A DNA stretch of 32,000 nucleotides from the NCBI GenBank assembly GCA_038889235.1, contig JAWAHN010000001.1, forward strand, positions 995,636 through 1,027,635, given 5' to 3'. A program made the translations under genes and the position numbers. Each line of letters starts with the position of its first letter. Within the stretch, counting starts at the first letter, position 1. Positions 3,910 through 29,759 of this stretch are shown piece after piece. The notes beneath the pieces were generated by a model. That model saw only the letters and a list, made by a program, of their open reading frames with translations. It searched no databases and was not told the origin of the DNA. The DNA is from Candidatus Jordarchaeales archaeon (lineage in GTDB: Archaea > Asgardarchaeota > Jordiarchaeia > Jordiarchaeales > Freyrarchaeaceae).

Positions 3910-4467
3910 TCAAAATAAAAATCTATCATCCCCCACTTTAGGAAGCGGGGGAAGTTCACCCTCCTTAGGAATTATTATTTTTTCACCTTTCGCACCCACC
4001 GCTCTTGCTTTACCCTCAAGCGCCATCGCAGCCGTCAGGGCGCACACTACAGCATCCGTCTCGTGCTTGTTTCGGGGTTTGTTCAAGAAAATAACAAATT
4101 TTTCTAGATCTTCCTCCTTCACCTTCAAAATCTTGTAAAACGCGCCGGGGAAAACTTCTATAACATTTCCTAATCTAGCTTTTAATCGCATAGCTCTAAA
4201 AACAAGCTCTGAGATAAAATTAGGTGGAAAAACACGTATACCCATACGTATTAACTCTTTATCAGCTTCCCTATAACCTTGCCGAAAGGTTAACGGTGCA
4301 TCTATCGCTATTAGCTGAGGACAGACACGTAAACAAGCACTTATTATTTCAAGGTCTGTGTATACACTAAAAACTCTAACAAACCCGTCACTCCATACGG
4401 CAAAACCACTAGGATTCAAAGGTTTAGCAGCAAGATCTATCCCCACGGTCACTACCAAAGTCTTCAC
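3910..4467 (-). CDS. DUF429-like protein (predicted RNase H-fold)
   Basis: 185 aa. N-terminal VGIDLAAKP...GFAVW and LIAIDAPL motifs are typical of DUF429-type proteins. The call is by motif recollection only. Confidence 0.5.
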   Translation of the reverse strand: MKTLVVTVGIDLAAKPLNPSGFAVWSDGFVRVFSVYTDLEIISACLRVCPQLIAIDAPLTFRQGYREADKELIRMGIRVFPPNFISELVFRAMRLKARLGNVIEVFPGAFYKILKVKEEDLEKFVIFLNKPRNKHETDAVVCALTAAMALEGKARAVGAKGEKIIIPKEGELPPLPKVGDDRFLF

Positions 4468-4497
4468 CTATAAGAAAAGAAACGAGTTGCAATCAGT

Positions 4498-4665
4498 TTA
4501 AAGCCGTCCCTGCTGACCAACAGGTTTACCTAAAATAACCCTCCGCACATAGTTCTTTCTATTCCTAACTCTCGGAATAACGGGCGGCCTTTCTTTCCTA
4601 GGAACCTTCGGCGTCTGGTTTCTAACCTTTCCCGCTTTAGTTAAGCTTCCATGTGACCCAGGCAC
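4498..4665 (-). CDS. rps30e: ribosomal protein eS30 (S30e)
   Basis: Not in the ORF track (55 aa). GTG start at 4665 immediately after an in-frame TAG; TAA at 4500-4498. Product: (M)[54 protein letters not shown]. It matches the eS30 core HGSLxxAGKVRxQTPKV. Confidence 0.8.
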
Positions 4666-4804
4666 CTATCTTCCACCCCTTTCCCGTTTTTCATCCTAAT
4701 TTTCCCAGGAAACTAATTAAATATTTTTCTACAATCTTGTTGCATTTTTCTTTCGAGAAATATCGATAAATGCAGATGAAAGAATAAATAAAAACAAATG
4801 AGTG

Positions 4805-6208
4805 CTATTTCTTCTTTATTTTCCTCGCTATAACTTCAGCAACTAATGTTATTTCACTCCATGTTGGGCAGCTTATCGGCGCATAGCACGTCTCAAGCCA
4901 CTCTAACTGTTCTACATTCATGTTTGCTTGCATAGCTGCAGCTATTATGTTTATCTTCTGGTGTATGTCTTCGTATCCGACAATTTGTGCTCCAAGTATT
5001 CTGCCTTTTTCATCCGCCATCATTTTTATCTTTAACGGCTTCCCGCCGGGCATGTATTCTGGCTTGCTCGAATACGTCATTTTGCCTACTATTGGTTTTA
5101 GTCCTGCTTTTTCCAAAGTCTCTGTAAGAGGCCCTACAGCCGCCACTTCTACCCCAAAAACTTTCGTTATCCTTGTAAGCAAGATTCCTTTAGGCATCTC
5201 GGCATCTCCGCCAGCAGCGTTTATTCCGGCGACTTTGCCTTGCCTAACTGCTATGGTGCCCATTCCTACTGCTATCGGTTGACCAGTTACAAAGTCGACA
5301 TACTCTGTACAGTCTCCGGCGGCATATATTCCTTCGACGTTAGTTCGTGCACGTGAGTCGACTTTTATGTATTTCGTGCTTCCCAGCGCCACTCCAGCTT
5401 TAACTGCTAACTCCGTGTTAGGTCTTACTCCTGCAGACACTACGACGAAGTCTGTGGGTATTACTTCCTCCTCTCCGGTCGTCCTATCCTTTAAAACGGC
5501 TTTTTCGGCTTTATCTTCTCCTATTAGTTCTGTTACGGCAGTATTTGTGTATATCTTTACCCCGTGCTCTTTAAGAGCGTTCTCCACCATGTCTGACATA
5601 TCGGCGTCTACCATTAATGGGAGGACACTAGGAAGGAATTCCACGAGAGTTACGTCCACTCCGAGCTCAACTAAGGCCTCTGTTGTTTCTACACCTATAA
5701 GTCCTGCACCTATAACAACACACTTTTTCCCTTTTTTTGCCGCCTCATGGATGGCCATGGCGTCATCTATAGTTCTCAGAGAGTAAACGTTCTTTTTTCC
5801 TTCTATCCCCTTTATAGGCGGAAAAGCAGGCCTCGACCCGGTAGCTATCACCAGAGCATCATACTCTAATTTTTTCTCTTCCTTGCTTCGTAAGTCTTTG
5901 ACTGTTACTGTTCTATTGGAAACGTCTATGTCTGTGGCTTCTGTCTCTAAAAGCAGGTTCATCTTCCCAAAACTTGAATACCATCCTGCGTCATGAGTTA
6001 TTAAGTTCGTGAACTCTGGAATATATTTCGAAATGGTGTATGGAAGACCGCACCGGGAGTATTCTGGGTATTTTTCTTTGGTTACTAATGTTATTTCCGC
6101 CTTCCTGTCAGTTTTTCTCGCCCATATGCCTGCCGTAGTTCCAGCTGCTCCCGCTCCAATAATAACTATTTTCGTCAATCTTCGTTTCCTCCCAATTTTT
6201 AAATTCAA
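4805..6208 (-). CDS. FAD-dependent pyridine nucleotide-disulfide oxidoreductase (NADH oxidase / CoA-disulfide reductase type)
   Basis: 467 aa. FAD fold IVIIGAGAAGTTAG. Single redox cysteine context YSRCGLPY. Second dinucleotide fold VVIGAGLIGVE. Also AAGDC. Confidence 0.85.
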   Translation of the reverse strand: MNLKIGRKRRLTKIVIIGAGAAGTTAGIWARKTDRKAEITLVTKEKYPEYSRCGLPYTISKYIPEFTNLITHDAGWYSSFGKMNLLLETEATDIDVSNRTVTVKDLRSKEEKKLEYDALVIATGSRPAFPPIKGIEGKKNVYSLRTIDDAMAIHEAAKKGKKCVVIGAGLIGVETTEALVELGVDVTLVEFLPSVLPLMVDADMSDMVENALKEHGVKIYTNTAVTELIGEDKAEKAVLKDRTTGEEEVIPTDFVVVSAGVRPNTELAVKAGVALGSTKYIKVDSRARTNVEGIYAAGDCTEYVDFVTGQPIAVGMGTIAVRQGKVAGINAAGGDAEMPKGILLTRITKVFGVEVAAVGPLTETLEKAGLKPIVGKMTYSSKPEYMPGGKPLKIKMMADEKGRILGAQIVGYEDIHQKINIIAAAMQANMNVEQLEWLETCYAPISCPTWSEITLVAEVIARKIKKK

Positions 6209-9920: not shown

Positions 9921-11105
9921 CTAGAAGCATCTGTGAATTACTCCTACGCCTCCCTCTTGATACTCTTTCTTTGTAACCCACATCTTCTGGAACGTCCTTA
10001 ACGAAGCTAATATTGATCCTCCGATCCAGACACTATATTGTCTCTCGGGCGGCGCAATTATCTTTATTTCAACATTTTCTGGAACTAGCTCTGATATCTC
10101 TTTGTGCAATCTTTCCTTTAAACCTGGAAACATTGTTGAGCCGCCTGAAAGGACTATGTTAGCGTATAACTCTCTTCTCAAGTCGATGTCGCACTTCTTA
10201 ATAGTCTCGACTATTGCTTCATCTAGCGGCGGTGCATCTAATCCGATAACTCCCGGGTTGAAGAAGACTTCTGGTGCTAGGAATCTCTCGGCACCAATAG
10301 TAATAGTTTCGCCATCAGGTAGTACGTATGTTTTTTCTATGCCTGAAACTTTCTCTGCAAGTTTGAGCTCCTTTTCAGGGTCCAATGCCACATAGCAGAG
10401 CTTTTCCTTAATGTCCCTGACTATTTCTCTTTCAGCTGTTGAAACGAAGCTGTAACCGCGTTGTCTTAGGAGCCTTCGCAAGTACTCAGTTATATCCCTC
10501 CCTGCAAGATCTATCCTGGTAATGGCGTGTGTTAACGCGAAACCTTCATAGATTGGAACTATGTGTGTTACTCCATCTCCCGAGTCTACCACTAGACCCG
10601 TTGTCCTTCCAGACGCATAGAGCGAGAGAACAGCTTGCATTGCAACATATATAGCCGGTGTATTAAATGTTTCAAACATTATTTCAGCCATTTTTTCCCT
10701 GTTTTCACGCGGGTTCAGCGGCGGCTCCGTTAGTAATACAGGGTGCTCTGAAGGGTCGACTCTCAAGTCGTTGAAGAACGTGTAGTGCCAGATTTTTTCC
10801 ATAGCATCCCAATCTGTAACTACACCATGCTCTATTGGGTAAACTAACCTGAGTACTCCTCGCAGGTTAAGTGCCTCCTCTCCAATGTAATATTCTCTCG
10901 TGTAGTGTTCTACGTCCGTCATTATTGACGCATACTTCGGATATCCTATACAAGTTGGCCATACGGAACGAGGCTGATCCTCCCCTGCAAACCCATTCTT
11001 AGTTAACCCTGTTCCATTGTCTATTACTATAGGTTTCGCAGCAATCATTTCTTCTTCGCGTGCCATTTTCTCATATCTCCTAACATTTTTTAAAGGTCTC
11101 TTCAT
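9921..11105 (-). CDS. eukaryote-like (Asgard-type) actin
   Basis: Actin signatures run throughout: [72 protein letters not shown] and a C-terminal IHRCF. A more likely start is the ATG at 11066 (MAREEE...), which is preceded by GGAG and gives 381 aa. Confidence 0.9.
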
Positions 11106-12043: not shown

Positions 12044-12835
12044 TTAAATTTTCCCATTTTTCTCCTTTCTTTGCCATTCTTCGATGCCTAGAGCTATTCT
12101 CCCCACTATCGTCGGGTCTTTCATGGCTGCTCGTGCAATAGAAACAGCGTCAGCACCTGCCTTTATCATTTCAATAGCACTCTCAACGTCCCTAATCGAA
12201 TTATTACCTATTAAAAAAACATTAACGCTTTTGGAAATCTTTCTAATTAAATCTAGGTCTCCACAATTCACTCCCTCCTTCATCGCGTCTACATGTATCG
12301 CGTCGACCCCTGCTTTTTCAGCAATTCTGGCAACATTCAAGTCGTCCACCACATTCCCTCTCCACTTAAGTATAACTTTTATATCGAAAGAGTCTTTTAG
12401 ACGTGTTATCCACTCAGAAAGCTCATCTAGCCTTTTCAAAAGAGCCTGTCCTGCACCTACTGCCATAATTTCAGGCTGGCGGCAATGTGCATCTATTTCC
12501 AACGCTACCGCGCCACTCTTTGACACCACTTCTCCTGCAAACATAATTCCCTCTAAACTTGTTGCACGTGCATTTACAGCGACAGGCGCCCCTCCCTCCA
12601 GCGCTCTTCTAACCTCCTTTATAAGAAAATCCTCAATCTCTTCTACTTCAACTTCGAACTCTGTTCGCCCCCTAAGCTTCACGGCCTTGCCAGCCATAAC
12701 CGTTTCTCGGTCAAAGTTCAAACCTCCTAGAGTTACCATTCCCGCCCCCGCTTTCGCGGCACGGAAACAAAATTCTCCGTCACATATTCCAGCCATCGCG
12801 GCAAGTATCGCCTTACGTTTCAGGACGTCTCTCAT
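12044..12835 (-). CDS. Dus-like / NifR3-related flavin-dependent TIM-barrel protein (archaeal type)
   Basis: 263 aa. Dus-like features: MAGICDGEF, IDAHCRQPE (Cys in the position of the Dus catalytic Cys context), HVDAM and IGNNSIRD...GADAVSIARAA. The start overlaps the cofD stop by ATGA (12832-12835). Confidence 0.7.
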   Translation of the reverse strand: MRDVLKRKAILAAMAGICDGEFCFRAAKAGAGMVTLGGLNFDRETVMAGKAVKLRGRTEFEVEVEEIEDFLIKEVRRALEGGAPVAVNARATSLEGIMFAGEVVSKSGAVALEIDAHCRQPEIMAVGAGQALLKRLDELSEWITRLKDSFDIKVILKWRGNVVDDLNVARIAEKAGVDAIHVDAMKEGVNCGDLDLIRKISKSVNVFLIGNNSIRDVESAIEMIKAGADAVSIARAAMKDPTIVGRIALGIEEWQRKEKNGKI

Positions 12836-13767
12836 TTTCCCCTCACCAAGCTCATTATTTCAGAGGCTAAACGTTGCATATCTCTTTCATCATTCATTAA
12901 CGTATCCGTGACGTATGGAATAACACCAATAGATCTTACTTTATCCACCAGCGAACTGTCAACTCTGTCGAAGACCAAGATTTCGGCCACATCTTTGTAA
13001 AATTGTGCCACACCAAGTGGGGAAACTTCAACACCTAGGCTTCGCATAAGCTTTGCCGCCGGCCCGCTTACAGCTTTCCCTCCCACTATAGGGCTAACTG
13101 CAATCTTCCTGCAGCGTACTCTCCTGATAGTTTCTCTAATTTCCTTGATAGAAAGTATTGGTGCTATACTTGTAACCGGGTTACTTGGTCCTATGATAAC
13201 TGCTTCCGCTCCTTTTAGTACATCAATAACCTCGCGAGGGGGCCTGGCTTTTTCCGCCCCTCTATATTCTACACCAAAAACCTCAGGTTGTCCCTTATAC
13301 TTAACCCAAAATTCTTGCAAGGAAAGGACGCCAAGGTTAGTGTTTATGTATGTTTGTACCTTGTCATTTGTCATAGGGAGAATTCTTACTCTGACATCAA
13401 GCTTGTCGCACATGATTTTTACTACTTCGGAAAGCTGAAGGCCGCATCTGAGAAGATGTGTCCTCCATATGTGCGTTGCCAAATCGCGATCTCCCAAAGC
13501 GAACCAGGTGGGTAAACCATATCTATGCATCATTTCGAGGCAATTGAAAGTGTCCCCCTTAATCCCCCAAAATTTTTCTTCGTCAAGAATACCCGCAACG
13601 AGGTAGACTGCGCTATCTAAATCCGGACTTATGTATAGACCATGAAGTTCAATATCGTCGCCAGTGTTCACTATGACTGAAATGTCTTCTTGCGGAAGAA
13701 CTTTAAGAAACCCTTTAAGCAGTTTTAGCCCACCAGTGCCTCCTGTTAATAATGCAATCAACGTCAC
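12832..13767 (-). CDS. cofD: 2-phospho-L-lactate transferase (F420 biosynthesis, CofD)
   Basis: 311 aa. Motifs LTGGTGGLKLL, VNTGDDIELHGLYISPDLD, IIGPSNPVTSI. Confidence 0.9.
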   Translation of the reverse strand: MTLIALLTGGTGGLKLLKGFLKVLPQEDISVIVNTGDDIELHGLYISPDLDSAVYLVAGILDEEKFWGIKGDTFNCLEMMHRYGLPTWFALGDRDLATHIWRTHLLRCGLQLSEVVKIMCDKLDVRVRILPMTNDKVQTYINTNLGVLSLQEFWVKYKGQPEVFGVEYRGAEKARPPREVIDVLKGAEAVIIGPSNPVTSIAPILSIKEIRETIRRVRCRKIAVSPIVGGKAVSGPAAKLMRSLGVEVSPLGVAQFYKDVAEILVFDRVDSSLVDKVRSIGVIPYVTDTLMNDERDMQRLASEIMSLVRGK

Positions 13768-13768
13768 G

Positions 13769-14527
13769 TCACCTGAAAAGGTCTCTTTCAGGCGGCATTA
13801 AAAGTTCTTTGTAACTTCCGTCACCTTTAATGTACTTGTATCCTCTTATTATTACTACGGGAATTCCTTCATCGGCTTGCCCCATGATTAGCTCGGCTGC
13901 TGAAGCTAACTCGTCCGCCACGGCGACTATTGTCGAACGCAAGACGTACCCATACAAATCCTTGTCTCCGCGCCTGTCCCAAAGCGGCTTAAGTCCCGCT
14001 ACTCCTATAGCTACGTTTACCACTCCCTCCCTGAAGGGTCTTCCAAACGTATCAGAGATTATAACAGCAACATCTGCCCCCGTGAGGTTGAAAATGCCCT
14101 CTCTAATGCGTCTTGCCGACTCGTCTGGGTCCAAAGGGAGAAGCGTGACTTTCCCCCCTCCGGATACATTTGACTCGTCTACCCCCGAATTCGCGCAAAC
14201 GAATCCGTGAAATGTTTCCGTAATAATTATGTGTCGCATCCTAACAACTTTTTTTGCCTCTCTCAGGATAACTTCAACCATTTGGGGGGACTTGCCGATT
14301 TGTTTGCTTACATTGATAGCGAAAGGTGAGGGTGTAACCTTCGACAAGTCTACAACTCGTCCCTCAGCCTTAGAAACTATCGATTGCGCCACAACGATGA
14401 CATCATTATCGAGTATTTTAACACCTTGCTTTTCCGCTGCTTCAACGATCAGCTTCGCTACGTCATCTCCTTCCTTCACAAGCGGTATACCTTTAATTCC
14501 TATTAATTCTATTTTAATTTGTACCAC
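13769..14527 (-). CDS. cofE: coenzyme F420-0:L-glutamate ligase (CofE)
   Basis: 252 aa. Motifs GIPLVKEGDDVAKLI, VVAQSIVSKAEGR, ANSGVDESN, SDTFGRPFREG. There is a 1-nt gap to the cofD start. Confidence 0.9.
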   Translation of the reverse strand: MVQIKIELIGIKGIPLVKEGDDVAKLIVEAAEKQGVKILDNDVIVVAQSIVSKAEGRVVDLSKVTPSPFAINVSKQIGKSPQMVEVILREAKKVVRMRHIIITETFHGFVCANSGVDESNVSGGGKVTLLPLDPDESARRIREGIFNLTGADVAVIISDTFGRPFREGVVNVAIGVAGLKPLWDRRGDKDLYGYVLRSTIVAVADELASAAELIMGQADEGIPVVIIRGYKYIKGDGSYKELLMPPERDLFR

Positions 14528-14610
14528 CCTCTTAAGCGCCTCTTCTGCTCTTAGATAGCATCACGTTTATCTTAATTCTTTTGAATTAGAGGAAGCGTGG
14601 AGGTCGTGCG

Positions 14611-15285
14611 ATGAACAATACATACTTGGTTATTCCTTTTAAAGGACTGGAAACTGCAAAATCGAGATTATCTCCCTTCCTTCCTCCTGATGCACGACAA
14701 AAACTAAGTCTTGCTATGTTACTTGACGTAATAACTGCCGCAAAGAAGTCTAAAATGTTCAAGAAAATTCTTATTGTGACAACAGACAGAAAATTTAAAG
14801 TTTCCTATAAAGGAGTCACCCTCATATTCGAGTCTCCTCCATATGATCTAAACAAAGCAGTTCAACTCGGAGTCGACTTTTGTTCTAAGCATGGCGCAAA
14901 AGCCGCTCTCATCCTACCCGCAGATTTACCACTTATAACGCCAAGCGATATAAAAAACATAATTAAGATGGGGGAGCCAGATGAGAAAGTTGTTGTTATT
15001 TCTCCGTCAGAGTCAAATGGGACTAACGCACTCTTCATGAAACCTCCCGGGATCATTCCCCCTTACTTTGGGGAGGACAGCTTCAACAAGCATATTTCTG
15101 CATCCAGAGAGCGAGGTGTATCAGTCAAAGTATATACCTCCCCGACAATTAAGACTGACATAGATTACATCAACACACTTTTAATAAACGCCCTTAATTT
15201 AGGTAAGAACACGAAGAAAGTAATTGATGTAATAAAAAACCATCTGAAAGTGGAAGGTAAAACCCTTCAACCATCCGCAATATAA
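14611..15285 (+). CDS. cofC: 2-phospho-L-lactate (or PEP) guanylyltransferase (CofC)
   Basis: 224 aa. Motifs IPFKGLETAKSRL, MLLDV, PADLPLITPSDI, GTNAL. Divergent from cofE. Confidence 0.8.
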   Translation: MNNTYLVIPFKGLETAKSRLSPFLPPDARQKLSLAMLLDVITAAKKSKMFKKILIVTTDRKFKVSYKGVTLIFESPPYDLNKAVQLGVDFCSKHGAKAALILPADLPLITPSDIKNIIKMGEPDEKVVVISPSESNGTNALFMKPPGIIPPYFGEDSFNKHISASRERGVSVKVYTSPTIKTDIDYINTLLINALNLGKNTKKVIDVIKNHLKVEGKTLQPSAI

Positions 15286-15323: not shown

Positions 15324-15749
15324 TTACTCTGCAAAAACCTCTTTGATCTCCTTCACCGCATCTTCTATTATTCGTTCATACCTTCTCTCTTTATGTAGAA
15401 GGACCGATGCTGCATCAGCAATCCTCCGTTTAGCTGAAATCGGTAGTATAGCTGCCAGTATAAACCTTTTATTTGAGACCTCTATACTTTTGAATACAAT
15501 AATCCCATCGCTTGTTTCTATAGTTACTTGTTCTAGGTCTCCAAGTCCTATCTGATCTTTAACTCTAATGGCAGTCGCGTGAGCTAGACCAGCCATCGCG
15601 GCGATTACCTGTTTACTTTCAGGACCGCTCGCCTCAGCAACCACTAGTCCATCCTCCCTAGAAATGACACTCGCTGAAAAACCCCCCTTTTTGTTCATGT
15701 CCTCTAAAATTTTTGTTAATGTCGAAAGCTTATCTTTAGACATCAACAC
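15324..15749 (-). CDS. Roadblock/LC7 (MglB-like) domain protein
   Basis: 141 aa. The pattern GGFSASVISREDGLVVAE...AAMAGLAHATA...IETSDGIIVFK...ILAAIL is typical of the Roadblock/LC7 fold. Confidence 0.75.
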   Translation of the reverse strand: MLMSKDKLSTLTKILEDMNKKGGFSASVISREDGLVVAEASGPESKQVIAAMAGLAHATAIRVKDQIGLGDLEQVTIETSDGIIVFKSIEVSNKRFILAAILPISAKRRIADAASVLLHKERRYERIIEDAVKEIKEVFAE

Positions 15750-16912: not shown

Positions 16913-19585
16913 GTGTCTAGCGTGTCCTTGAGGTTTACCAAAAGAATCCACTCCATACGGTTTAGTGTGCTTTCTCCAGACGAAATAAGGCGTATGTCCG
17001 CTACACGAATAATTACGCCCGACACGTATGATGAGGACGGTACCCCCATAGAGACTGGACTTATGGACGAACGTTTGGGGACTGTAGAACCTGGGCGGCG
17101 TTGTAAGCTTTGCGGTAACCCCATAGGTGAATGTATCGGCCACTTCGGGCATATCGAACTCGTCCGCCCGGTGATACACGTAGGCTTTGTTAAAATTCTT
17201 CATAAAGTTCTAAGAGCTACATGCCGACGTTGTTGCAGACTTCTGCTTCCAGAGGAACAGATAAACGCCTTTTTAATAGAAATGGAAAAGTACGAGGCTG
17301 AAACCGGAGAATTAAGTGACGAAATAGCTGAAGAGGTATTCCGCCGCGCATCCAGAACCACGATATGCCCTCACTGCGGCGAAACCCAACGCAAAGTTAG
17401 GCTTGAAAAACCAACTACGTTTTATGAGGAAACAGAGACTGGATCGATAAGGCTCACGCCGAGTGATGTACGCGAACGGTGCGAACGTGTACCTGACACG
17501 GATTGCAAACTCCTCGGAATAAATCCAAAGTACGCCCGTCCTGAGTGGATGGTACTTACAGTTCTCCCCGTGCCACCGGTCTGTGTCAGACCAAGTATAA
17601 CCCTTGAATCAGGTGTTCGTTCAGAAGATGATTTAACTCATAAGCTCGTCGATATAATCAGGATAAATCAACGTTTAAGGGAGAACATAGAAGCGGGGGC
17701 TCCACAACTTATTGTTGAAGACTTATGGGAGTTGTTGCAATATCACGTAACCACTTACTTTGACAATGAAATCTCCGGCATACCTCCAGCCCGTCATCGT
17801 TCAGGAAGAGTTCTTAGAACTCTTTCCCAGAGATTGAAAGGCAAAGAAGGGCGTTTCAGGAGCAATTTATCCGGAAAACGCGTAGACTTCTCAGCTAGGA
17901 CGGTGATATCTCCTGACCCAAACATCGGGATTAATGAAGTAGGAGTGCCTATCGAGGTAGCTAAAATCCTGACCATACCCGAAAGGGTAACGGAACTCAA
18001 CATCGAAGAAATGAAAGAACTTGTTATGAGAGGACCTGACGAACACCCTGGAGCAAACTACATAATTAGAAGCGACGGGAAACGAATAGACTTGAGGTTT
18101 GTCAAAAACAGGCAAAAAGTCGCTGAAGAACTTACTCCCGGATGTATAGTTGAACGCCACCTTAACGACGGAGATATAGTACTTTTCAATAGACAACCGT
18201 CCCTCCACAGAATGAGTATCATGGCACATGAAGTTAGAGTTATGCCCTACAAGACGTTTAGGTTAAACCTCTGTGTGTGTCCACCTTACAATGCCGACTT
18301 TGATGGGGACGAGATGAACCTCCACGTACCGCAATCAGAGGAAGCTAGAGTAGAAGCATACGTACTTATGAGAGTTCAAGAACATATCCTAAGCCCACGT
18401 TACGGAGGTCCAATCATAGGAGGGCTCCAGGACTTCATTACATCTGCATACCTTTTAACCAGAAAACAGACATTACTCACTAAAGAAGAAGCTTGTGAAC
18501 TCGCTCTAGCTGCTGGAATAACCGAGCTTCCTCCACCAGCAGTAACAGAACCAGTTCCTCTTTGGACTGGAAAACAAATTTTCAGTTTGACCCTACCTAA
18601 GGGGCTTACTGCACGTTTCAAATCAAAGCTGTGCAAACACTGTGATACATGCCGCAAGGATGAGTGTCCTCACGATGCATACGTGGTAGTTATCGACGGA
18701 GTTCTTCAGAAGGGTGTCATAGACAAAGCGGCTTTCGGGGCAGGCGTCCCCGAAAGTCTTCTTCACAAAATAGCAAGAGATTTCGGCACCGATGCTGCAA
18801 GGCAATTCCTAGATTCAGTAACACGAATGTTAATCAGGTACATTACGAACAAGGGCTTCACCTTAGGTCTAGATGACATGGAAATACCTGAAGAAGCGGT
18901 TCAACGCATAAACGAAATACTAGAGGAAGGAGAGCGCAGAGTTAACGAACTAATAGAGACCTACAGGAGAGGCGAGCTTGAAGCTTTACCGGGACGTACC
19001 ATAGAAGAAAGTCTTGAAATGTTAATTATGCAAGAACTCAACAATGTTAGAGACAAAGCTGGTGAAATCGCCAGCGAATATCTAGGTCCAAACAACCATG
19101 CAGTAATAATGGCGTTGACAGGTGCACGCGGCACCATGCTTAACCTTGCAATGATGGCTGCATGTGTAGGGCAACAATCAGTTAGAGGGCAACGTATACA
19201 TAGAGGATATCGAGGAAGAACTTTACCACACTTCAAAAAAGGCGACCTGAGCGCTAAATCAAGAGGCTTTGTAGCTTCCCACTACAGGAAAGGATTAGAC
19301 CCAATAGAGTTCTTCTTCCACGCGATGGGTGGACGAGAGGGCTTGGTAGACACTGCAGTAAAAACGTCGCAATCCGGATACCTACAACGCAGGCTCATTA
19401 ACGCTCTTCAAGATGTAAAGGTCGAATATGACGGCACGGTAAGAGACTCCACAGGTCGTATCATACAATTCAAATACGGAGAAGACTTAGTTGACCCAAC
19501 TAAAAGTTGGTATGGTAAAGCAGTCAACATTGACACAATAATTGATGAATACATATTGCAGCATTCTAAATTATCCAAAAAATGA
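16913..19585 (+). CDS. rpoA1: DNA-directed RNA polymerase subunit A' (Rpo1N)
   Basis: 890 aa. Motifs CKLCGNPIGECIGHFGHIEL, NRQPSLHRMS and the catalytic YNADFDGDEMNLH. The length and end point are typical of the archaeal A'/A'' split. In-frame GTG starts occur at 16913 and 16922. Confidence 0.95.
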   Translation: MSSVSLRFTKRIHSIRFSVLSPDEIRRMSATRIITPDTYDEDGTPIETGLMDERLGTVEPGRRCKLCGNPIGECIGHFGHIELVRPVIHVGFVKILHKVLRATCRRCCRLLLPEEQINAFLIEMEKYEAETGELSDEIAEEVFRRASRTTICPHCGETQRKVRLEKPTTFYEETETGSIRLTPSDVRERCERVPDTDCKLLGINPKYARPEWMVLTVLPVPPVCVRPSITLESGVRSEDDLTHKLVDIIRINQRLRENIEAGAPQLIVEDLWELLQYHVTTYFDNEISGIPPARHRSGRVLRTLSQRLKGKEGRFRSNLSGKRVDFSARTVISPDPNIGINEVGVPIEVAKILTIPERVTELNIEEMKELVMRGPDEHPGANYIIRSDGKRIDLRFVKNRQKVAEELTPGCIVERHLNDGDIVLFNRQPSLHRMSIMAHEVRVMPYKTFRLNLCVCPPYNADFDGDEMNLHVPQSEEARVEAYVLMRVQEHILSPRYGGPIIGGLQDFITSAYLLTRKQTLLTKEEACELALAAGITELPPPAVTEPVPLWTGKQIFSLTLPKGLTARFKSKLCKHCDTCRKDECPHDAYVVVIDGVLQKGVIDKAAFGAGVPESLLHKIARDFGTDAARQFLDSVTRMLIRYITNKGFTLGLDDMEIPEEAVQRINEILEEGERRVNELIETYRRGELEALPGRTIEESLEMLIMQELNNVRDKAGEIASEYLGPNNHAVIMALTGARGTMLNLAMMAACVGQQSVRGQRIHRGYRGRTLPHFKKGDLSAKSRGFVASHYRKGLDPIEFFFHAMGGREGLVDTAVKTSQSGYLQRRLINALQDVKVEYDGTVRDSTGRIIQFKYGEDLVDPTKSWYGKAVNIDTIIDEYILQHSKLSKK

Positions 19586-22293: not shown

Positions 22294-22426
22294 TGAAACT
22301 ACACCCCCTCAAAACCTGTAGTCACTTAACTCGGGTACTTTAATTGAGAAATACCTTTCGTTAAAAGCTTAATCGTTAAACGTGTGGTTTAATTTCTTCA
22401 AGAAAAGAAGAACGGAACACGCAAAG

Positions 22427-22434
22427 TTAAAATA
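22427..22434 (+). promoter_or_regulatory. candidate TATA box for the tRNA-Ser gene
   Basis: TTAAAATA preceded by purine-rich AAAG (BRE-like), about 30 nt upstream of the GGGC leader and tRNA 5' end at 22463-22467. Confidence 0.35.
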
Positions 22435-22482
22435 TTGTTTTCACTCTTCAAACACTCTAGAAGGGCGCCCGGGTCGCCTAGA

Positions 22483-22501
22483 AGAATTTCTACTTTGGGC
22501 A
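22483..22501 (+). other. tRNA-Ser intron 1 (19 nt, D-loop)
   Basis: Central helix: C477 C478 U479 A480 pairs with U496 G497 G498 G499. The bulges are G481 A482 A483 and C500 A501 A502. The inner and outer helices are short and GU-rich. The mature D-loop is AGAAUGGUA. Confidence 0.6.
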
Positions 22502-22516
22502 ATGGTAGGGCGGTGG

Positions 22517-22539
22517 AGCCCCTAAAAAAGGGCGCCGTA
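22517..22539 (+). other. tRNA-Ser intron 2 (23 nt, anticodon stem position 30/31)
   Basis: Canonical hBHBh'. The outer helix pairs G508-G510 with C541-C543. The central helix pairs C511 G512 G513 U514 with G534 C535 C536 G537. The bulges are G515 G516 A517 and U538 A539 G540. The inner helix pairs G518-C521 with G530-C533, with loop CUAAAAAA. Confidence 0.8.
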
Positions 22540-22546
22540 GCTCGAG

Positions 22547-22577
22547 ATCTTTCCCAAAGAAATTTGGGGGAAGATAA
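22547..22577 (+). other. tRNA-Ser intron 3 (31 nt, canonical position 37/38)
   Basis: The geometry is right: bulges A545 G546 A547 and A576 A577 A578, inner helix U548-C553 with G566-A571, and GAAA-capped hairpin CCCAAA GAAA UUUGGG. However, the central helix has only 2 of 4 Watson-Crick pairs. A cut 1-2 nt upstream would give the loop CUCGAAA instead of CUCGAGA. Confidence 0.65.
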
Positions 22578-22590
22578 ACCCACTGGCGGA

Positions 22591-22607
22591 TTCCGTATGG
22601 ACGCAAG
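22591..22607 (+). other. tRNA-Ser putative intron 4 (17 nt, variable-arm loop) - tentative
   Basis: The unspliced variable region would be 34 nt. In the candidate BHB, the central helix pairs G586 C587 G588 with C602 G603 C604 (3 of 4). The bulges are G589 A590 U591 and A606 G607 C608. The inner hairpin is UCC GUAU GGA. Removal leaves U GGCGG ACAC CCGCC GC, a typical tRNA-Ser variable arm. An alternative 14-nt excision (22596-22609) is possible. Confidence 0.45.
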
Positions 22608-22628
22608 CACCCGCCGCGCGCGTTCGAA

Positions 22629-22659
22629 TGGAAAAGGGAGATTCACTCCCTCCCGGGCA
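22629..22659 (+). other. tRNA-Ser intron 5 (31 nt, T-loop position 59/60)
   Basis: Canonical hBHBh'. The outer helix is the T-stem, G618-G622 with C661-C665. The central helix pairs U623 U624 C625 G626 with C654 G655 G656 G657. The bulges are A627 A628 U629 and C658 A659 U660. The inner helix pairs G630 G631 A632 with U651 C652 C653, followed by hairpin GGGAG AUUCA CUCCC. Confidence 0.8.
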
Positions 22660-22688
22660 TCGCGCCCCGGGCGCCACCATCCTTTAAC

Positions 22689-23186
22689 TCAGTCTAGTAC
22701 ATATCCTAGCTTCTTTACTAGTTCTCTCCTCTCCTCTTTCTGTTTCTCGTTTTCTACTGCTGTGACACTAGTCCCATCAACGGCCCCAATAATTGCCCGC
22801 CCAAGATCAGTTTCCGCTACTAGTATTTGGACAGGGTTACCAGTTGCTACTATTATGTTGCATACTGCTGGGATCCTTTTAAGGGTGTTTAGCACATTGA
22901 TTGGATAAGCGTTTCTGACTAAGACAACATATGCATGTGAAGCTCCTATGGCTAAAGCGTTCTTTGCAGCTAGACTCTTCAACCTCTCGTCATTTCCATT
23001 GACTCTTACGAGACGTGGTGCTGCCTCGTTCATTGCTACGCCACATTTAATTCCGGGGACTGACGTTAGCAGCTCTCTAAAAATATTGTCGACAGTGTAT
23101 ATTGTAAAGTTGGCCATCCCGCAGATAAATTGATCATCCTTCTCCTTCTCTATTGGGACGACGTGAATTTTAACACTCATGCCCAA
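22689..23186 (-). CDS. adenosine-specific kinase family protein (PF04008/DUF355-like)
   Basis: 165 aa. Family-typical blocks: VPGIKCGVAMNEAAPRLVRVNGND, AIGASHAYVV, AYPINVLNTLK, VATGNPVQILVAETDLGRAIIGAVDG. Confidence 0.65.
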   Translation of the reverse strand: MGMSVKIHVVPIEKEKDDQFICGMANFTIYTVDNIFRELLTSVPGIKCGVAMNEAAPRLVRVNGNDERLKSLAAKNALAIGASHAYVVLVRNAYPINVLNTLKRIPAVCNIIVATGNPVQILVAETDLGRAIIGAVDGTSVTAVENEKQKEERRELVKKLGYVLD

Positions 23187-23254: not shown

Positions 23255-24523
23255 TTAGACCGAAATTTTCGCTGAAAACGGTTCTCCAAGCAGTTTTTCT
23301 GAAGCTTTAGCGACAACTTCTCTATACTTTTCGTCCGTGTAAACTCTTATAATATTCAAAAATCCCTTCATTACTGACACTATGTTCGACACATCTTCTA
23401 ACCGTAGTACCCTCTTTCTTCCGTCCTTCCCTCTTTGAACTATCGGCAAGTTTGCAGCGTCCTCATCCATAGTCCTGTGGTAGGGAACCGACGGCAAAGT
23501 CGGCACATCTATATAAACGTTTTCCACGTCAACGCCGGCTTCCTCCGCTATTTCCTCTTCAAGCCGTCTTTTAATCGCTTCTTTGGTCATAATTGCTGAA
23601 AAAACTCCGTTCCTCACGAAAAATATCTTTTCATAGGACACTTTTGGTAAATCTCGCATCTTGAGCCTCTCGATGTAAGGCTTAGATCCTTTACATTGAA
23701 GCATAAGCCCCCACACAGAGTAGTCATCATAGTTTAAGTACTCCTGAGGGCTCACCTTTACTATGTTTATCTCCTCATTAACTTTCTCCAGTCCTTTTTC
23801 CAAAAGAATTTGGGCAGCTCTAGACGCTTTATGAAAGTATATGCTCCTAAAAAGCTCAACCCTGGCCACAAGGAAGGATTCTAAAGTTGGTAGCGCCACT
23901 AAGTCTACCGCTAGATTTCCTTCGTGAAGGTCTATGGTGTGTATTAAGCGAAAGACGTCAATGGAGGCGAACTCTCCCCCAGTGTGGTAGGAGTCTCTCA
24001 GAATATAGTCGAGCTTGTCGCAATCAATCGAGCTAGAAATTATTTGACTTAAAAACTCTTTATGCTTCTTCTGTAGTTTACCTACGGCTAGAAGTGCTAC
24101 GTCTTTAGCGTTTAATCCAATCGACTCTACAGCGTCTTTGAGTGAAGTTTGCGTAATTATTTCCATAGTAATGTCTTCATGTGTCTTTTTAAGGTGCCTA
24201 ATAAGCAGCGCTTCAAACACATGGCTGAATGGACCATGCCCCACATCGTGAAGCAGCCCAGCTATTTTAATCATTTCTACAGCGTCGCTTTCTAAATACC
24301 CCTTACTCACTAAGGACTCGGCCATTAAATTTGAAAGGTGCATTACACCGAGGGAGTGTTCAAACCGTGTATGGACTCCCGCAGGGTAAACAAATTCGCT
24401 TCCAGCTAACTGCCTTATTCTACGCAATCTTTGGACAGCTTCTGTATCTATCACCTTTACTTCTTCGAAATCGCATTGAATGTAACCATAAATGGGATCT
24501 TTGATCAGGATTTTTTTCTTCAC
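23255..24523 (-). CDS. HD-domain phosphohydrolase, SAMHD1/EF1143-like (COG1078; putative dNTP triphosphohydrolase)
   Basis: 422 aa. Motifs RFEHSLGV, LLHDVGHGPFSH, DCDKLDYILRDSYHTG. Confidence 0.85.
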   Translation of the reverse strand: MKKKILIKDPIYGYIQCDFEEVKVIDTEAVQRLRRIRQLAGSEFVYPAGVHTRFEHSLGVMHLSNLMAESLVSKGYLESDAVEMIKIAGLLHDVGHGPFSHVFEALLIRHLKKTHEDITMEIITQTSLKDAVESIGLNAKDVALLAVGKLQKKHKEFLSQIISSSIDCDKLDYILRDSYHTGGEFASIDVFRLIHTIDLHEGNLAVDLVALPTLESFLVARVELFRSIYFHKASRAAQILLEKGLEKVNEEINIVKVSPQEYLNYDDYSVWGLMLQCKGSKPYIERLKMRDLPKVSYEKIFFVRNGVFSAIMTKEAIKRRLEEEIAEEAGVDVENVYIDVPTLPSVPYHRTMDEDAANLPIVQRGKDGRKRVLRLEDVSNIVSVMKGFLNIIRVYTDEKYREVVAKASEKLLGEPFSAKISV

Positions 24524-25827
24524 TCCCCTTTCTCTCCCCTATTCTTTCTAAAAATTTTTTCACATACTTTTTTGACATCTTCTACATATCTTTTTTCCGC
24601 GAAAACATAAACCTGCATCAGACTATTATACCTCGCTTTCAAGGTTTGAACTAAATTAGGGTCGTATTCCTCAAGTCCCCGCCCTCCTGCCCTCACCTCG
24701 CTCACTTCGGTGTAGTAATCTCGTGGTAGGTATATGAAAACATCTATTTCTGATATGTCAACATCGTGCTGAAGCTTCCTTACTTCCATAATTATTTCGT
24801 TTCGCAGCTCATGATAGTCGACCATCCCGAGGGCGGCTCTAGAAACTTTTTCTGGAAATTCGCTTATGTGTGCGGCATATGCTTTTTTGGGAATTCTACG
24901 GTATCTCAATCTGTATGCTAGCTTTCTAGCCTCCTCCACACTGCTATTTGCAAGCATATTTATGAACTGGTTGTCGTCGAGAAAAAATAGGTGATAGAAG
25001 TCATAATCTCCAAGCCCCTTTAGCAAGAGCTCTAATGCTAGACAACTGGCCGCCAGAGTGGTATGATGCAAGTAAACCTTTTTCATCATCCAGAAACGGC
25101 TTTCCAGAACGCTTATCGCTGCCCCTATAGCGTCAGTCCTGTTTTTTAATGCAAGCCTTCCATCCCCGTCTATTTCAAAAGAGGAGAAAATCCGGTCGTC
25201 ATAACTTTGAGGAACCCCTGTGTAGTAAGCATCTCTTTTCAAGTAGTCGAGTCGGTCAGCATCCAGCGGACCATTCACTAATTGGCTCAAGTATCTTGGC
25301 TTTCCCTCTCCCATTATTATTTCTACAATGCGGCTTCTGTCTCTCTTACCATACCCTTCTTCCTCCAAAACCTCTCTTAATGGTATTGCCGCATCCATTA
25401 TCTCTGGGTTCTCCTTCTGAAATTTCTTATAGCAAACTCCCTCAACTATTTCGCTAACAAATTTCTCATGCGGTGGTATTATGTTTGGATAAAACCTGCG
25501 AAAGAAGTCGGACACTACGTGGCTGAAAACAGGTGTTGCCACATCGTGAAGTAGCGCGGCAAGCCTTACAAATCTAACTTCTTCGTCGTCTAGTGGTATT
25601 TTTGACATCGAAATTATCTTATCGACGCACGCTCGTACGCCGAGGCTGTGCTGAAACCTTGAATGTTCTGCCCCTGGGTAAACTAAGAATGCGAAGTCAA
25701 GCTGCTTAATTCCTCTTAATCTTTGCAATTCGAACGTATCTAGGATCTTCTTGTCAGTGGAAGTTAGGAAAATATCACCCCAAACAGAGTCCCTTACTTT
25801 CCATTCTTCTGTGCGCAAAAACTTCAC
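24520..25827 (-). CDS. HD-domain phosphohydrolase paralog (COG1078) with a divergent metal-site neighbourhood
   Basis: 435 aa with a GTG start. Motifs RFQHSLGV, LLHDVATPVFSH (GHGPFSH replaced) and DADRLDYLKRDAYYTG. The stop overlaps the start of the downstream HD gene (ATGA-type, 24520-24523). Confidence 0.85.
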   Translation of the reverse strand: MKFLRTEEWKVRDSVWGDIFLTSTDKKILDTFELQRLRGIKQLDFAFLVYPGAEHSRFQHSLGVRACVDKIISMSKIPLDDEEVRFVRLAALLHDVATPVFSHVVSDFFRRFYPNIIPPHEKFVSEIVEGVCYKKFQKENPEIMDAAIPLREVLEEEGYGKRDRSRIVEIIMGEGKPRYLSQLVNGPLDADRLDYLKRDAYYTGVPQSYDDRIFSSFEIDGDGRLALKNRTDAIGAAISVLESRFWMMKKVYLHHTTLAASCLALELLLKGLGDYDFYHLFFLDDNQFINMLANSSVEEARKLAYRLRYRRIPKKAYAAHISEFPEKVSRAALGMVDYHELRNEIIMEVRKLQHDVDISEIDVFIYLPRDYYTEVSEVRAGGRGLEEYDPNLVQTLKARYNSLMQVYVFAEKRYVEDVKKVCEKIFRKNRGEKGE

Positions 25828-28550: not shown

Positions 28551-29759
28551 CTACTCGACATGTACTCTTAAGAGATCTACGTCGCCGGGTTCTCCCGGAA
28601 TCCGCCTCTTGAGTATTTCAAGGAACTCTCTAACCGACCTTTTGATATCTTTAGACTGCGTGATGTACCTTCCAACTATGAGTATGTGCGCTCCAGCATC
28701 TAATGCTTCGTCGGCATTTTCTGGAACAATGCCTCCTGCCACGGCAAAAAGCATTTTTTGCCCCTCAAAGGTCTTCTTAATCTCTTTTATCAGCTCCCAC
28801 CTAGATCTCCTTCCGGACGACTCTGTATCGATTGCTCTGTGAATTATTACAACATCAGGGAGTTCTTTCAGCGACTTCAATTTCTCAATAGGGTCTGGGA
28901 CATCCATCATATCTAGGAAAGCATAAATTCCAAGTCGTCTCGCTTCATAGATGAACTTATCAATGGATTCCTTAGATGCGAGCCCAGAAGCAACTACTCC
29001 ATCAGCAGTCTCCTCATATGCTAGGTCGACTTCTACCTGTGCAGTGTCTAAAGTTTTCAGGTCAGCTACTATAAACATGTCTGGAACTACTTCTCTAAGT
29101 TTGCCGATAACGCTTACACCATGCCTCTTTATCAGCGGAGTGCCTGCCTCGAGTATTATCATATCACTCTTCGGTATTTCACTTACTACACGAATAGCCT
29201 GCTCCAATGACGGATTATCGAGTGCTATCTGCAAGTATGGAGGCCGCCATAGTCGAGGAACCTTAAAGCCCATTATTGGGTGCACCGCCCTATCTTTATC
29301 ATACATTATCTTCTCTAGCGGCGGATATCCTTGCAAGGCTCGTCTTAAAGCAAGCTTTGTAGCACTATAATTGTAGTGGTATATCTTCCTGTAATCCTTT
29401 GCTTCCGGGTGAACGAAAACGCTTGCTATTATCACCCATTCATCTGCCTTATCCGCTGGAATAATCCCTTCCTCTACAGCGTCCGCTATAGCTTTAGCCA
29501 CAGCAGACTGCGCTGGACCGAATATCTTGTTCGCCTGTTCCATGTTTTTAATAGTGACTTTCGGGATGATCAATACGTGCGGTTTTGGTGGTAGATTAGG
29601 TCTAATCACCCCTAGAAGCGGCGTGTGTCCCTGGGACATATGGGTTAAACCTTGGGCAAACGCTACTCCAACTGGGCCAAACTTGTCCCCTATGATTAGA
29701 TCAATGTGCGCTACCTCCGCACCTTTGCCAACCAACGCCTCACCTATGTAAAACTCCAT
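28551..29759 (-). CDS. fae-hps: bifunctional formaldehyde-activating enzyme / 3-hexulose-6-phosphate synthase
   Basis: 402 aa. The N-terminal Fae domain reads [19 protein letters not shown]...GHTPLL. The C-terminal Hps/OMPDC-fold domain has [21 protein letters not shown] and IVGRYIT. Confidence 0.9.

Follow-up and report, generated by a model that had tools for sequence, protein, structure and literature searches.

The window (the whole 32,000-nt stretch of DNA analyzed here) is part of a contig of a Candidatus Jordarchaeales (Asgard) archaeon, and a 210-nt locus at its positions 22467–22676 on the forward strand is very probably a functional tRNA-Ser(CGA) gene with five introns, which would be removed from one precursor by ordered endonuclease splicing. 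The window also encodes an Actin (Pfam, 1e-139) and a Roadblock domain, confirming the Asgard lineage, and the HD protein encoded near the locus is 100% identical to a protein from a Jordarchaeales MAG at NCBI. The features of the locus are the following.

22423–22434, + strand: putative archaeal promoter, an A-rich BRE-like stretch plus the TATA-like TTAAAATA, with the 3′ end 33 nt ahead of where the mature tRNA starts
22467–22482, + strand: exon 1 (positions 1–16); acceptor 5′ strand, U8 C9, D-stem 5′ strand, start of the D loop
22483–22501, + strand: intron 1, 19 nt, D loop 16/17; BHB; alternative 21-nt register 22482–22502
22502–22516, + strand: exon 2; remaining D loop (G18 G19), D-stem 3′ strand, G26, anticodon stem 27–30
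22517–22539, + strand: intron 2, 23 nt, position 30/31; strict hBHBh′ motif
22540–22546, + strand: exon 3, 7 nt (GCUCGAG); G31, C32-U33-C34-G35-A36-G37, with the anticodon CGA
22547–22577, + strand: intron 3, 31 nt, position 37/38; relaxed, non-canonical structure
22578–22590, + strand: exon 4; A38, anticodon-stem 3′ strand, U44, variable-stem 5′ strand GGCGG plus A
22591–22607, + strand: intron 4, 17 nt, variable-arm loop; alternative 15-nt register 22592–22606
22608–22628, + strand: exon 5; remaining variable loop, variable-stem 3′ strand, G47 C48, T-stem 5′ strand, T loop U54–A59
22629–22659, + strand: intron 5, 31 nt, T loop 59/60; strict hBHBh′ motif
22660–22676, + strand: exon 6; U60, T-stem 3′ strand, acceptor 3′ strand, G73, encoded CCA

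The hallmark sequences named in the preliminary description are all present: the acceptor halves GCCCGGG (22467–22473) and CCCGGGC (22666–22672), the latter followed by G73 and CCA (22673–22676); GCGCG-TTCGAAT at 22618–22629; and a D-arm region reading GCCTAG...TGGTAGGGCG. The locus, noticed there as a GC-rich island, has the highest G+C content of the whole stretch (0.71 over 70 nt), followed by two peaks of 0.64 and 0.63 that fall within coding ORFs. The unspliced genomic DNA yields nothing, or spurious low-threshold calls, in the default, intron, and relaxed modes of ARAGORN, and has no match in Rfam at the gathering threshold or at E ≤ 10. Excision of the 19, 23, 31, 17, and 31 nt originally proposed does leave 89 nt that form a class II cloverleaf, and ARAGORN, suggested as a check together with that proposal, assigns the joined exons to tRNA-Ser(CGA); every stem is paired, the variable stem has 5 bp, and G73 and the encoded CCA are in place. 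The universal tRNA nucleotides are found by reading: U8, A14, G18 G19, A21, U33, G53-U54-U55-C56, A58, and C61. Typical of class II serine tRNAs are the variable arm U-GGCGG-ACAC-CCGCC-GC, G73, and the anticodon CGA; the variable stem is invariant or compensated among the orthologues (AGCGG/CCGCU in L172).

The exons measure 16, 15, 7, 13, 21, and 17 nt and the introns 19, 23, 31, 17, and 31 nt, intron sequence making up 58% of the gene. The introns interrupt the D loop (16/17), anticodon stem (30/31), anticodon loop (37/38), variable-arm loop, and T loop (59/60); the acceptor stem is the only arm without interruption. If introns 1 and 4 were cut in their alternative registers, the spliced product could measure 87–91 nt. 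A split or circularly permuted tRNA gene was considered and rejected, as all six exons follow one another in collinear order on a single strand over 210 nt. No other hidden tRNA was seen in the window, where no further T-arm-like motif with a G53/C61 stem looks tRNA-like, and reading of the introns for C/D-box RNAs revealed no box motifs.

Nine further distinct syntenic orthologues come from Jordarchaeales/Freyarchaeia, giving ten sequences with that of the window, and in all ten (10/10) ARAGORN calls the spliced sequence tRNA-Ser(CGA). The order HD protein, adenosine kinase, tRNA is constant. Three introns are present in Freyarchaeum deiterrae (CP147778.1; introns 4 and 5 missing), four in GCA_038849455.1 and GCA_052745115.1 (Jordarchaeum, Jordarchaeaceae), and five in the six lineages of the window's clade; both these orthologues and the spliced 89-mer agree with the earlier claim of a tRNA-Ser(CGA) gene split by five short introns. 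An identical 210-nt gene is found in two more independent assemblies, GCA_038821275.1 and the Logan assembly of SRR21619497. In L003 (Helarchaeota), L004 (Archaeoglobus), and L167, the neighboring gene is present and an adjoining tRNA is absent; a metagenome scan with the pattern GCTCGAGATC-N{15,45}-ACTGGCGG gave, among the matches listed, chance matches in unrelated contigs and no orthologue. The distribution suggests that introns 1–3 are ancestral to Jordarchaeia/Freyarchaeia, and that the variable-arm intron predates the T-loop intron, which may have been gained in the window's clade.

Exon 3 is invariant in 10/10 orthologues, exons 2 and 4 are invariant throughout the five-intron clade, and exon 1 is identical in 5/6 five-intron lineages, L168 differing by one D-loop base; exon 5 is conserved, the T-stem changes of L001 (GUGUG/CACAC) being compensated across intron 5. 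In the spliced alignment, the cloverleaf is 99.2% paired, with one unpaired cell in 130, vs. 34–53% when slid, and six pairs show compensatory changes; 0/500 shuffles score as high. Compensatory changes are seen in the acceptor, anticodon, and T stems. Upstream, the promoter-like AAAGTTAAAATA is kept as AAA(R)TTAAAATA at equal distance in L158, L161, L162, and L168, the spacer around it diverging; this conserved TATA-like element is a putative promoter.

These data bear on whether the locus could be a decaying tRNA pseudogene with accumulated insertions, its cloverleaf being an artefact of freely chosen deletions. The silence of the standard tRNA finders and Rfam would fit such decay, and five free deletions could force a tRNA-like product out of a tRNA remnant. 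However, in the four aligned five-intron lineages the identity to the window is 94–100% in exons vs. 54–80% in introns, and the compensatory changes affect not only the three stems but also an exon–intron helix. The junctions occupy identical positions in ten lineages that share 59–100% identity in a neighboring protein, changes in length occurring at these junctions; the promoter-like element is conserved; and the complete-genome table of F. deiterrae lists no second tRNA-Ser(CGA). Loss of constraint, the mark of a pseudogene, is not seen, indels being confined to the inserts at the five junctions. We regard the pseudogene as scarcely credible and retain the functional gene.

The bulge-helix-bulge (BHB) rule, with cuts two bases into 3-nt bulges and a 4-bp helix (H) between them, fits introns 1, 2, and 5, all with H 4/4 and with flanking helices present; these three strict motifs also carry compensatory changes. 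Intron 1, described earlier as weaker, has a complete and conserved central helix (CCUA/UGGG, 4/4); its bulges are GA|A and CA|A, and its outer helix has 4 bp. Both of its boundaries leave an ambiguity of 1 nt: the original placement at 22482–22500 gives the same product as 22483–22501, and the register 22482–22502 leads to a 7-nt D loop. Its orthologues are 12–30 nt long and divergent in sequence. Introns 2 and 5, which were presented as textbook hBHBh′ motifs, are indeed strict. Intron 2 combines H CGGU/GCCG with the inner helix GCCC/GGGC, the outer helix GGG/CUC, and bulges GG|A and UA|G, a geometry kept in 9/9 orthologues at lengths of 18–30 nt. In intron 5 (17–31 nt; absent in L172, L173, and L002), H consists of UUCG/CGGG, with the 5-bp T stem serving as outer helix; here, the exon change G57A is matched by intron C to U (UUCA/UGAG, UUCA/UGAA), preserving the exon–intron helix.

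An unbiased scan for strict BHB motifs finds nine sites, whereas shuffled sequences give 2.65 ± 1.8; among the nine are introns 1, 2, and 5, each with its junctions where predicted. Pooled over introns 1, 2, 4, and 5 of nine lineages at tRNA-defined junctions, the BHB cores are 87% paired and the central helix 91%, vs. 26–40% when slid, in a test that mixes different introns and in which the register of intron 4 was picked partly by pairing. In the minimum-energy fold of the whole 210-nt precursor, the BHB motifs are not seen, and this fold was left out of the evidence.

Intron 4, initially labeled tentative, turns out to be well supported by a strict BHB in two relatives and by its absence in F. 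deiterrae. In the window, its structure is relaxed (H GGCG/CGCA, 3/4; outer helix of 0–1 bp), and either end could shift by 1 nt. This imperfect BHB of the window's clade would also suit a gene with four introns, in which the 17-nt insert stays unspliced and gives the mature tRNA-Ser a branched variable arm of unusual length. The insert is the best conserved of the five in the close clade (16/17 nucleotides identical to L162), which could mean function, and variation in the length of the variable arm is known to be tolerated by tRNA-Ser. Nevertheless, we consider retention quite improbable. The arm of F. deiterrae is normal (GGCGG-GUUU-CCGCC) and has no insert; the 15/16-nt register has H GCGG/CCGC 4/4 in L001, L172, and L173, and in the latter two the BHB is strict (a 3-bp inner helix and two 3-nt bulges; partly hand analysis) and its removal restores 4-nt loops, AUUU/ACUU, comparable to the GUUU of L002. 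The inner hairpin covaries (UCC/GGA in the window, GCG/CGC in L001, CCG/CGG in L172, CUA/UAG in L173), while the exon-pairing segment (CGCA/CCGC) is fixed. Finally, were the insert retained, a 5-bp stem would close a 21-nt loop, an arm that, to our knowledge, has no parallel in any tRNA. Splicing of intron 4 is the preferred reading.

Intron 3 behaves differently. Its position, 37/38, stands as originally assigned, but a canonical BHB is not formed, the central helix being paired at 2/4 in the window's clade. Across lineages, 62.5% of cells are paired in the canonical central helix (positions 32–35 with intron positions −6 to −3), vs. 91% in the other introns, and the fold in the canonical register has −6.4 kcal/mol vs. 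−20.0 kcal/mol for a competing hairpin. That minimum-energy fold is a long hairpin beginning at the first intron base. Conservation is seen in the AA|A bulge on the 3′ side, beside the anticodon stem, and at the two ends of the intron (AUC...GA(U)AA). Shifted cut sites, hand pairing of 32–35 elsewhere, and partially spliced contexts were tried as sources of a canonical BHB; none is conserved. A canonical BHB does not account for recognition of the 5′ site of intron 3.

In eukaryotes, the endonuclease mode combines measurement from the mature domain with an anticodon–intron pair. In another reading, the gene is real but its 37/38 insert would be removed by a non-BHB mode, the five introns lacking one shared mechanism; a candidate is measuring from the mature domain together with a C32–G(−3) pair, in eukaryote style. 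Besides the low pairing of the central helix, this would agree with the minimum-energy fold, which sets the 5′ site at the hairpin base facing a 6×3 internal loop; with the 3′ site, always in or beside the AAA bulge adjoining the anticodon stem; and with the base at −3, which in L001, L002, L172, and L173 is a G that can pair with C32. In the window's clade, however, the base at −3 is U, and the C32 pair is therefore missing; moreover, a slipped register there gives a 6-bp inner helix beside a 3-nt AG|A bulge, and cutting of relaxed hBH and HBh′ motifs by broad-specificity endonucleases is documented in intron-rich archaea (PMC4090602). On balance, a non-BHB mode seems unlikely. The same low standing applies to the most far-reaching version of our results, a doubtful combination of the first five-intron tRNA gene, found in at least six Jordarchaeales lineages, and a 3→4→5 gain series with a 37/38 intron recognized in a eukaryote-like manner and not as a BHB substrate, its 3′ bulge adjoining the anticodon stem, its 5′ site lying in a loop, and the distance being measured from the mature body. 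If true, it would place a step toward eukaryotic tRNA-intron recognition inside the Asgard archaea.

Under the preferred reading, a functional gene with five endonuclease-type introns, a single predicted precursor of approximately 210 nt plus a short leader would be processed. By analogy with archaeal systems, the tRNA splicing endonuclease would cut each intron two bases into both 3-nt BHB bulges, and an RtcB-type ligase would join the exons into the 89-nt class II tRNA. The process would be at least partly ordered, with intron 2 leaving before the anticodon stem forms: the BHB of intron 2 uses C25–U28 and pairs G22–G24 with C32–C34, hence the anticodon stem that adjoins the 3′ site of intron 3 is predicted to form once intron 2 has left, and not before. 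The preliminary description had proposed both an anticodon-loop exon of 7 nt and splicing that depends on order, and both proposals would hold. Neither the splicing endonuclease nor the RtcB ligase was recognized among the window ORFs scanned; the related Asgard genome of Atabeyarchaeia-1 carries at least two K01170 endonuclease genes (PMC11291895 supplement).

This gene would raise the documented limit of tRNA gene fragmentation from four introns to five, for an RNA of 89 nt, a state stable under selection across several species. Orthologues that carry three, four, or five introns in the same syntenic setting amount to a rare natural experiment on when and where endonuclease-type introns arise, and the orthologues can address how much conflict between adjacent splice motifs a precursor tolerates. 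The poorly structured 37/38 intron offers a defined substrate for relating Asgard splicing endonucleases to the eukaryotic enzyme. The locus is also a concrete test case for tRNA finders; since these miss or miscall it, codon-reading inventories of Asgard genomes are affected.

Among known systems, Thermoproteales have tRNA genes with several introns, although we know of none that is interrupted in its D, anticodon-stem, anticodon-loop, variable, and T regions together. Their three-intron genes (Sugahara et al., 2008; summarized in PMC8450103 and PMC4090602) resemble the one described here in having BHB introns at 30/31, 37/38, 59/60, and other positions, neighboring introns of which one must be out before the next motif forms, and relaxed hBH/HBh′ motifs; unlike it, they belong to Thermoproteota, not Asgard archaea, with a documented maximum of three. 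The red alga Cyanidioschyzon merolae (Soma et al., 2013; PMC3728597) shares D-loop, variable-arm, and T-loop introns and relaxed BHB (hBH/BHL) junctions, but in a eukaryotic nuclear genome, with at most three introns per gene and with some genes circularly permuted. Similar to intron 3, the eukaryotic 37/38 intron has a 5′ site in an open loop and a 3′ site within or next to a bulge of 3 nt that borders the anticodon stem, and four of our lineages could form the C32–G(−3) pair; the pair is missing in the window's clade, and the likeness is a resemblance only.

The closest parallels are the genes of Freyarchaeia and Atabeyarchaeia (PMC11291895; Valentin-Alvarado et al., 2024, Nat Commun), where 92–95% of tRNA genes contain introns and exons can be 8–9 nt long. 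These come from the same or a sister lineage, the F. deiterrae orthologue (CP147778.1) being syntenic, and likewise have several short introns per gene at non-canonical positions with short exons between them, and are missed or miscalled by tRNAscan-SE. The three-intron orthologue of F. deiterrae is probably the entry "Ser AGA" (score 25.2, three introns by R2DT), judging by its length, intron count, and the AGA triplet in intron 3. The maximum of three introns given in the preliminary description is outdated, as Supplementary Data 4 of that study lists up to four introns per gene, vs. five here; per-intron structural or comparative analysis is not given there. Four was the highest number found in the literature, with no report of a tRNA gene with five. 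Since four introns are already known in the lineage, five extend the phenomenon and do not break with it: the gene is an extreme case of a kind known in an intron-crowded lineage.

The following gene was analyzed together with its orthologues:

22467–22676, + strand: tRNA-Ser(CGA) gene, starting GCCCGGG and finishing CCCGGGC-G-CCA

The gene region is the G+C peak of the window (0.71, 70 nt), the next two peaks lying within coding ORFs, and it contains the tRNA hallmarks named in the preliminary description, GCGCG-TTCGAAT and GCCTAG...TGGTAGGGCG. Rfam gives zero matches to the unspliced window DNA, even with E ≤ 10. ARAGORN calls no tRNA on the unspliced DNA across the whole window, but the 89 nt left after removal of the five introns proposed there (19, 23, 31, 17, and 31 nt) are called tRNA-Ser(CGA), with a perfect class II cloverleaf, G73, and encoded CCA. 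Two mechanical ORFs cross the gene, 22435–22908 (+, 157 aa) and 22398–22646 (−, 82 aa); both are almost certainly spurious, and gene callers could enter them as hypothetical proteins where the tRNA was missed.

The gene is flanked by an adenosine-kinase-like gene and an APH-like gene, adjoining two HD-domain genes. Syntenic loci fetched via these flanking genes yielded ten distinct gene versions.

Versions of the tRNA-Ser gene in syntenic loci; intron lengths (nt) ordered 1/2/3/4/5, i.e., D loop 16/17, anticodon stem 30/31, anticodon loop 37/38, variable-arm loop, T loop 59/60
Window; Jordarchaeales MAG; 5 introns; 19/23/31/17/31
L158 (L159 identical); Logan assemblies; 5 introns; 19/21/30/18/29
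L160; Logan assembly, single base (intron 2) differs from L158; 5 introns; 19/21/30/18/29
L168; Logan assembly; 5 introns; 24/25/30/17/22
L161; Logan assembly; 5 introns; 13/20/28/17/31
L162–165; JGI, ENA, and Logan assemblies; 5 introns; 12/20/27/17/20
L001/L166/L169–171; JAPDJY010000056.1, GCA_029856875.1; 5 introns; 15/18/26/18/17
L172; Jordarchaeaceae, GCA_038849455.1; 4 introns; 29/30/35/18/none
L173/L174; Jordarchaeum sp., GCA_052745115.1; 4 introns; 30/30/37/18/none
L002; Ca. Freyarchaeum deiterrae, CP147778.1; 3 introns; 27/30/36/none/none

All ten spliced versions are called tRNA-Ser(CGA), and in L002 both the variable arm (GGCGG-GUUU-CCGCC) and the T arm are uninterrupted. In four lineages, identity to the window is 100, 97.8, 96.6, and 94.4% for exons and 80, 65, 67, and 54% for introns, with length differences confined to the inserts. 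When the spliced sequences are aligned, cloverleaf cells are paired in 99.2% of cases and six pairs show compensatory changes; none of 500 shuffles pairs as highly, and slid controls reach 34–53%. The original interpretation is essentially right and the finding real: judging from the sequence, this is a functional-looking tRNA-Ser(CGA) gene that probably carries five endonuclease-type introns and, very probably, at least four. An identical 210-nt gene is found in GCA_038821275.1 (contig JAWBEC010000001.1) and in the Logan assembly of SRR21619497, and is therefore no assembly artefact.

An AAA(R)TTAAAATA element, a putative promoter, is kept about 33–44 nt upstream of the gene in the close clade. 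Between genes on the downstream side of the tRNA-Ser gene, the three- and four-intron lineages share a conserved element, TTTTT(C)GATATYAAAAAAWGATATC (an A run with a GATATC site on either side), which may regulate the adjoining HTH-CBS gene; it was not found in the window even with 3 mismatches allowed. Its positions, given on the minus strand of each locus, are:

L002, 6599–6617
L172, 4291–4309
L173, 4184–4202
L174, 2323–2341

In L172 (Jordarchaeaceae MAG GCA_038849455.1), the tRNA-Ser gene is followed by a stretch of about 1 kb (3984–5172) that has no called genes.

In the canonical archaeal bulge-helix-bulge motif, the 5′ exon and the intron each finish with four helix bases and two bulge bases, and the third bulge base stands just after each cut; each intron was assessed by this rule. 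An unbiased strict-motif scan of the 210 nt found nine motifs vs. 2.65 ± 1.8 in shuffles. Introns 1, 2, and 5 are among them, with the junctions that the tRNA defines; the remaining matches fall within the hairpin of intron 3 or represent these helices in a slipped register. Junction-anchored cores of introns 1, 2, 4, and 5, pooled over nine lineages, have 87% of cells paired (91% in the central helix, H; 26–40% when slid); these rows combine different introns, and pairing partly guided which register was used for intron 4.

Intron 1 has H CCUA/UGGG (strands separated by a slash), an outer helix of 4 bp, and a short or absent inner helix. Its motif is kept in five-intron lineages, and U13·G is replaced by A13–U in L002; an alternative register (22482–22502, 21 nt) fits just as well and would leave a D loop of 7 nt. 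Intron 2 has H CGGU/GCCG and an outer helix of G22–G24 paired with C32–C34; the inner helix is GCCC/GGGC in the window, close relatives have GCUC/GGGC or GCC/GGC, and the helices of L002, L172, and L173 are unrelated. The H of intron 5 is UUCG/CGGG in the window and UUCG/CGAG, UUCA/UGAG, or UUCA/UGAA in relatives, where exon G57A is compensated by intron C to U; its outer helix is the T stem, and inner helices differ in each lineage.

For intron 4, the window shows H GGCG/CGCA (3/4) and the inner hairpin UCC-GUAU-GGA, which is GCG/CGC in L001, CCG/CGG in L172, and CUA/UAG in L173. With both cuts one base inward, H GCGG/CCGC pairs 4/4 in these three and 3/4 in the window clade, and the relatives' mature loops become AUUU and ACUU, resembling GUUU of L002. 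Because the hairpin is replaced across lineages and the inward register is complete in relatives, there is a good probability that intron 4 is real, with ends uncertain by one base.

Every lineage has intron 3 at 37/38; its ends, AUC...GA(U)AA, are conserved, and its AA|A bulge adjoins the anticodon stem. The canonical H (C32–G35 vs. intron positions −6 to −3) pairs 2/4 in the window clade and L173 and 3/4 in L001, L002, and L172 (62.5% of cells overall). At minimum energy, the anticodon arm folds into a long hairpin from the first intron base, facing a 6x3 internal loop (−20.0 kcal/mol); the canonical-register fold has −6.4 kcal/mol. By sequence and predicted fold, this is a non-canonical 37/38 intron. 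Its outer helix, the anticodon stem, has 1–2 bp in the unspliced precursor of five-intron lineages (1–3 bp in all ten) and 7 bp after removal of intron 2, whose motif takes up C25–U28 and C32–C34; therefore intron 2 would have to be spliced out ahead of intron 3, in agreement with the ordered splicing suggested earlier. Ordered removal has precedent in Thermoproteales (PMC8450103).

Other window genes were also noted. Two paralogues with HD-domain plus HD_assoc_2 architecture, in tandem (422 and 435 aa; 23255–25827, −), keep their synteny with the tRNA throughout Jordarchaeia/Freyarchaeia; in F. deiterrae the second copy is far more divergent. The window HD-domain protein is 100% identical to a protein of a MAG that NCBI lists as "Candidatus Jordarchaeales archaeon". 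An actin homologue (9921–11105, −; Pfam Actin, E = 1e-139, 466 bits) and a Roadblock/LC7-domain protein (15324–15749, −) are typical Asgard eukaryotic-signature proteins, and served here for the taxonomic placement of the window. The RNA polymerase subunit A′ gene (890 aa; 16913–19585, +) is isolated: it is neither preceded by rpoB nor followed by rpoA″, but lies between hisG on the upstream side and, downstream, a gene for ribose-phosphate pyrophosphokinase in convergent orientation, an unusual arrangement for archaeal rpo operons. Also present in this Asgard genome are an F420 biosynthesis cluster cofD-cofE-cofC (12832–15285) and a fused formaldehyde-activating enzyme/OMP-decarboxylase-family (Fae-Hps-like) gene (28551–29759).

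Archaeal tRNA genes are stated to hold up to three introns (PMC8450103); known positions include 30/31, 45/46, and 59/60, and relaxed hBH/HBh′ motifs are described (PMC4090602). Introns occur in 92–95% of Atabeyarchaeia and Freyarchaeia tRNA genes, 228 across three genomes (PMC11291895), with up to four per gene, separated by 8–9 nt exons, in Freyarchaeia Arg-TCT, Ile2-CAT, and Leu-GAG and Atabeyarchaeia-2 Trp-CCA (PMC11291895, Supplementary Data 4). For Freyarchaeia, the same data lack Ser-CGA and contain "Ser AGA" (183 nt, score 25.2, three introns by R2DT), probably the L002 gene itself, miscalled, because intron 3 of L002 contains an AGA triplet. In full-text searching of literature outside the subscription journals, no tRNA gene with five introns was found reported. 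Most worth pursuing are the non-canonical intron at 37/38 and the 3-4-5 intron series that this one locus offers. Compared with the multi-intron tRNAs already described in this lineage, the window gene is an extreme member of the class, not a new kind of element.
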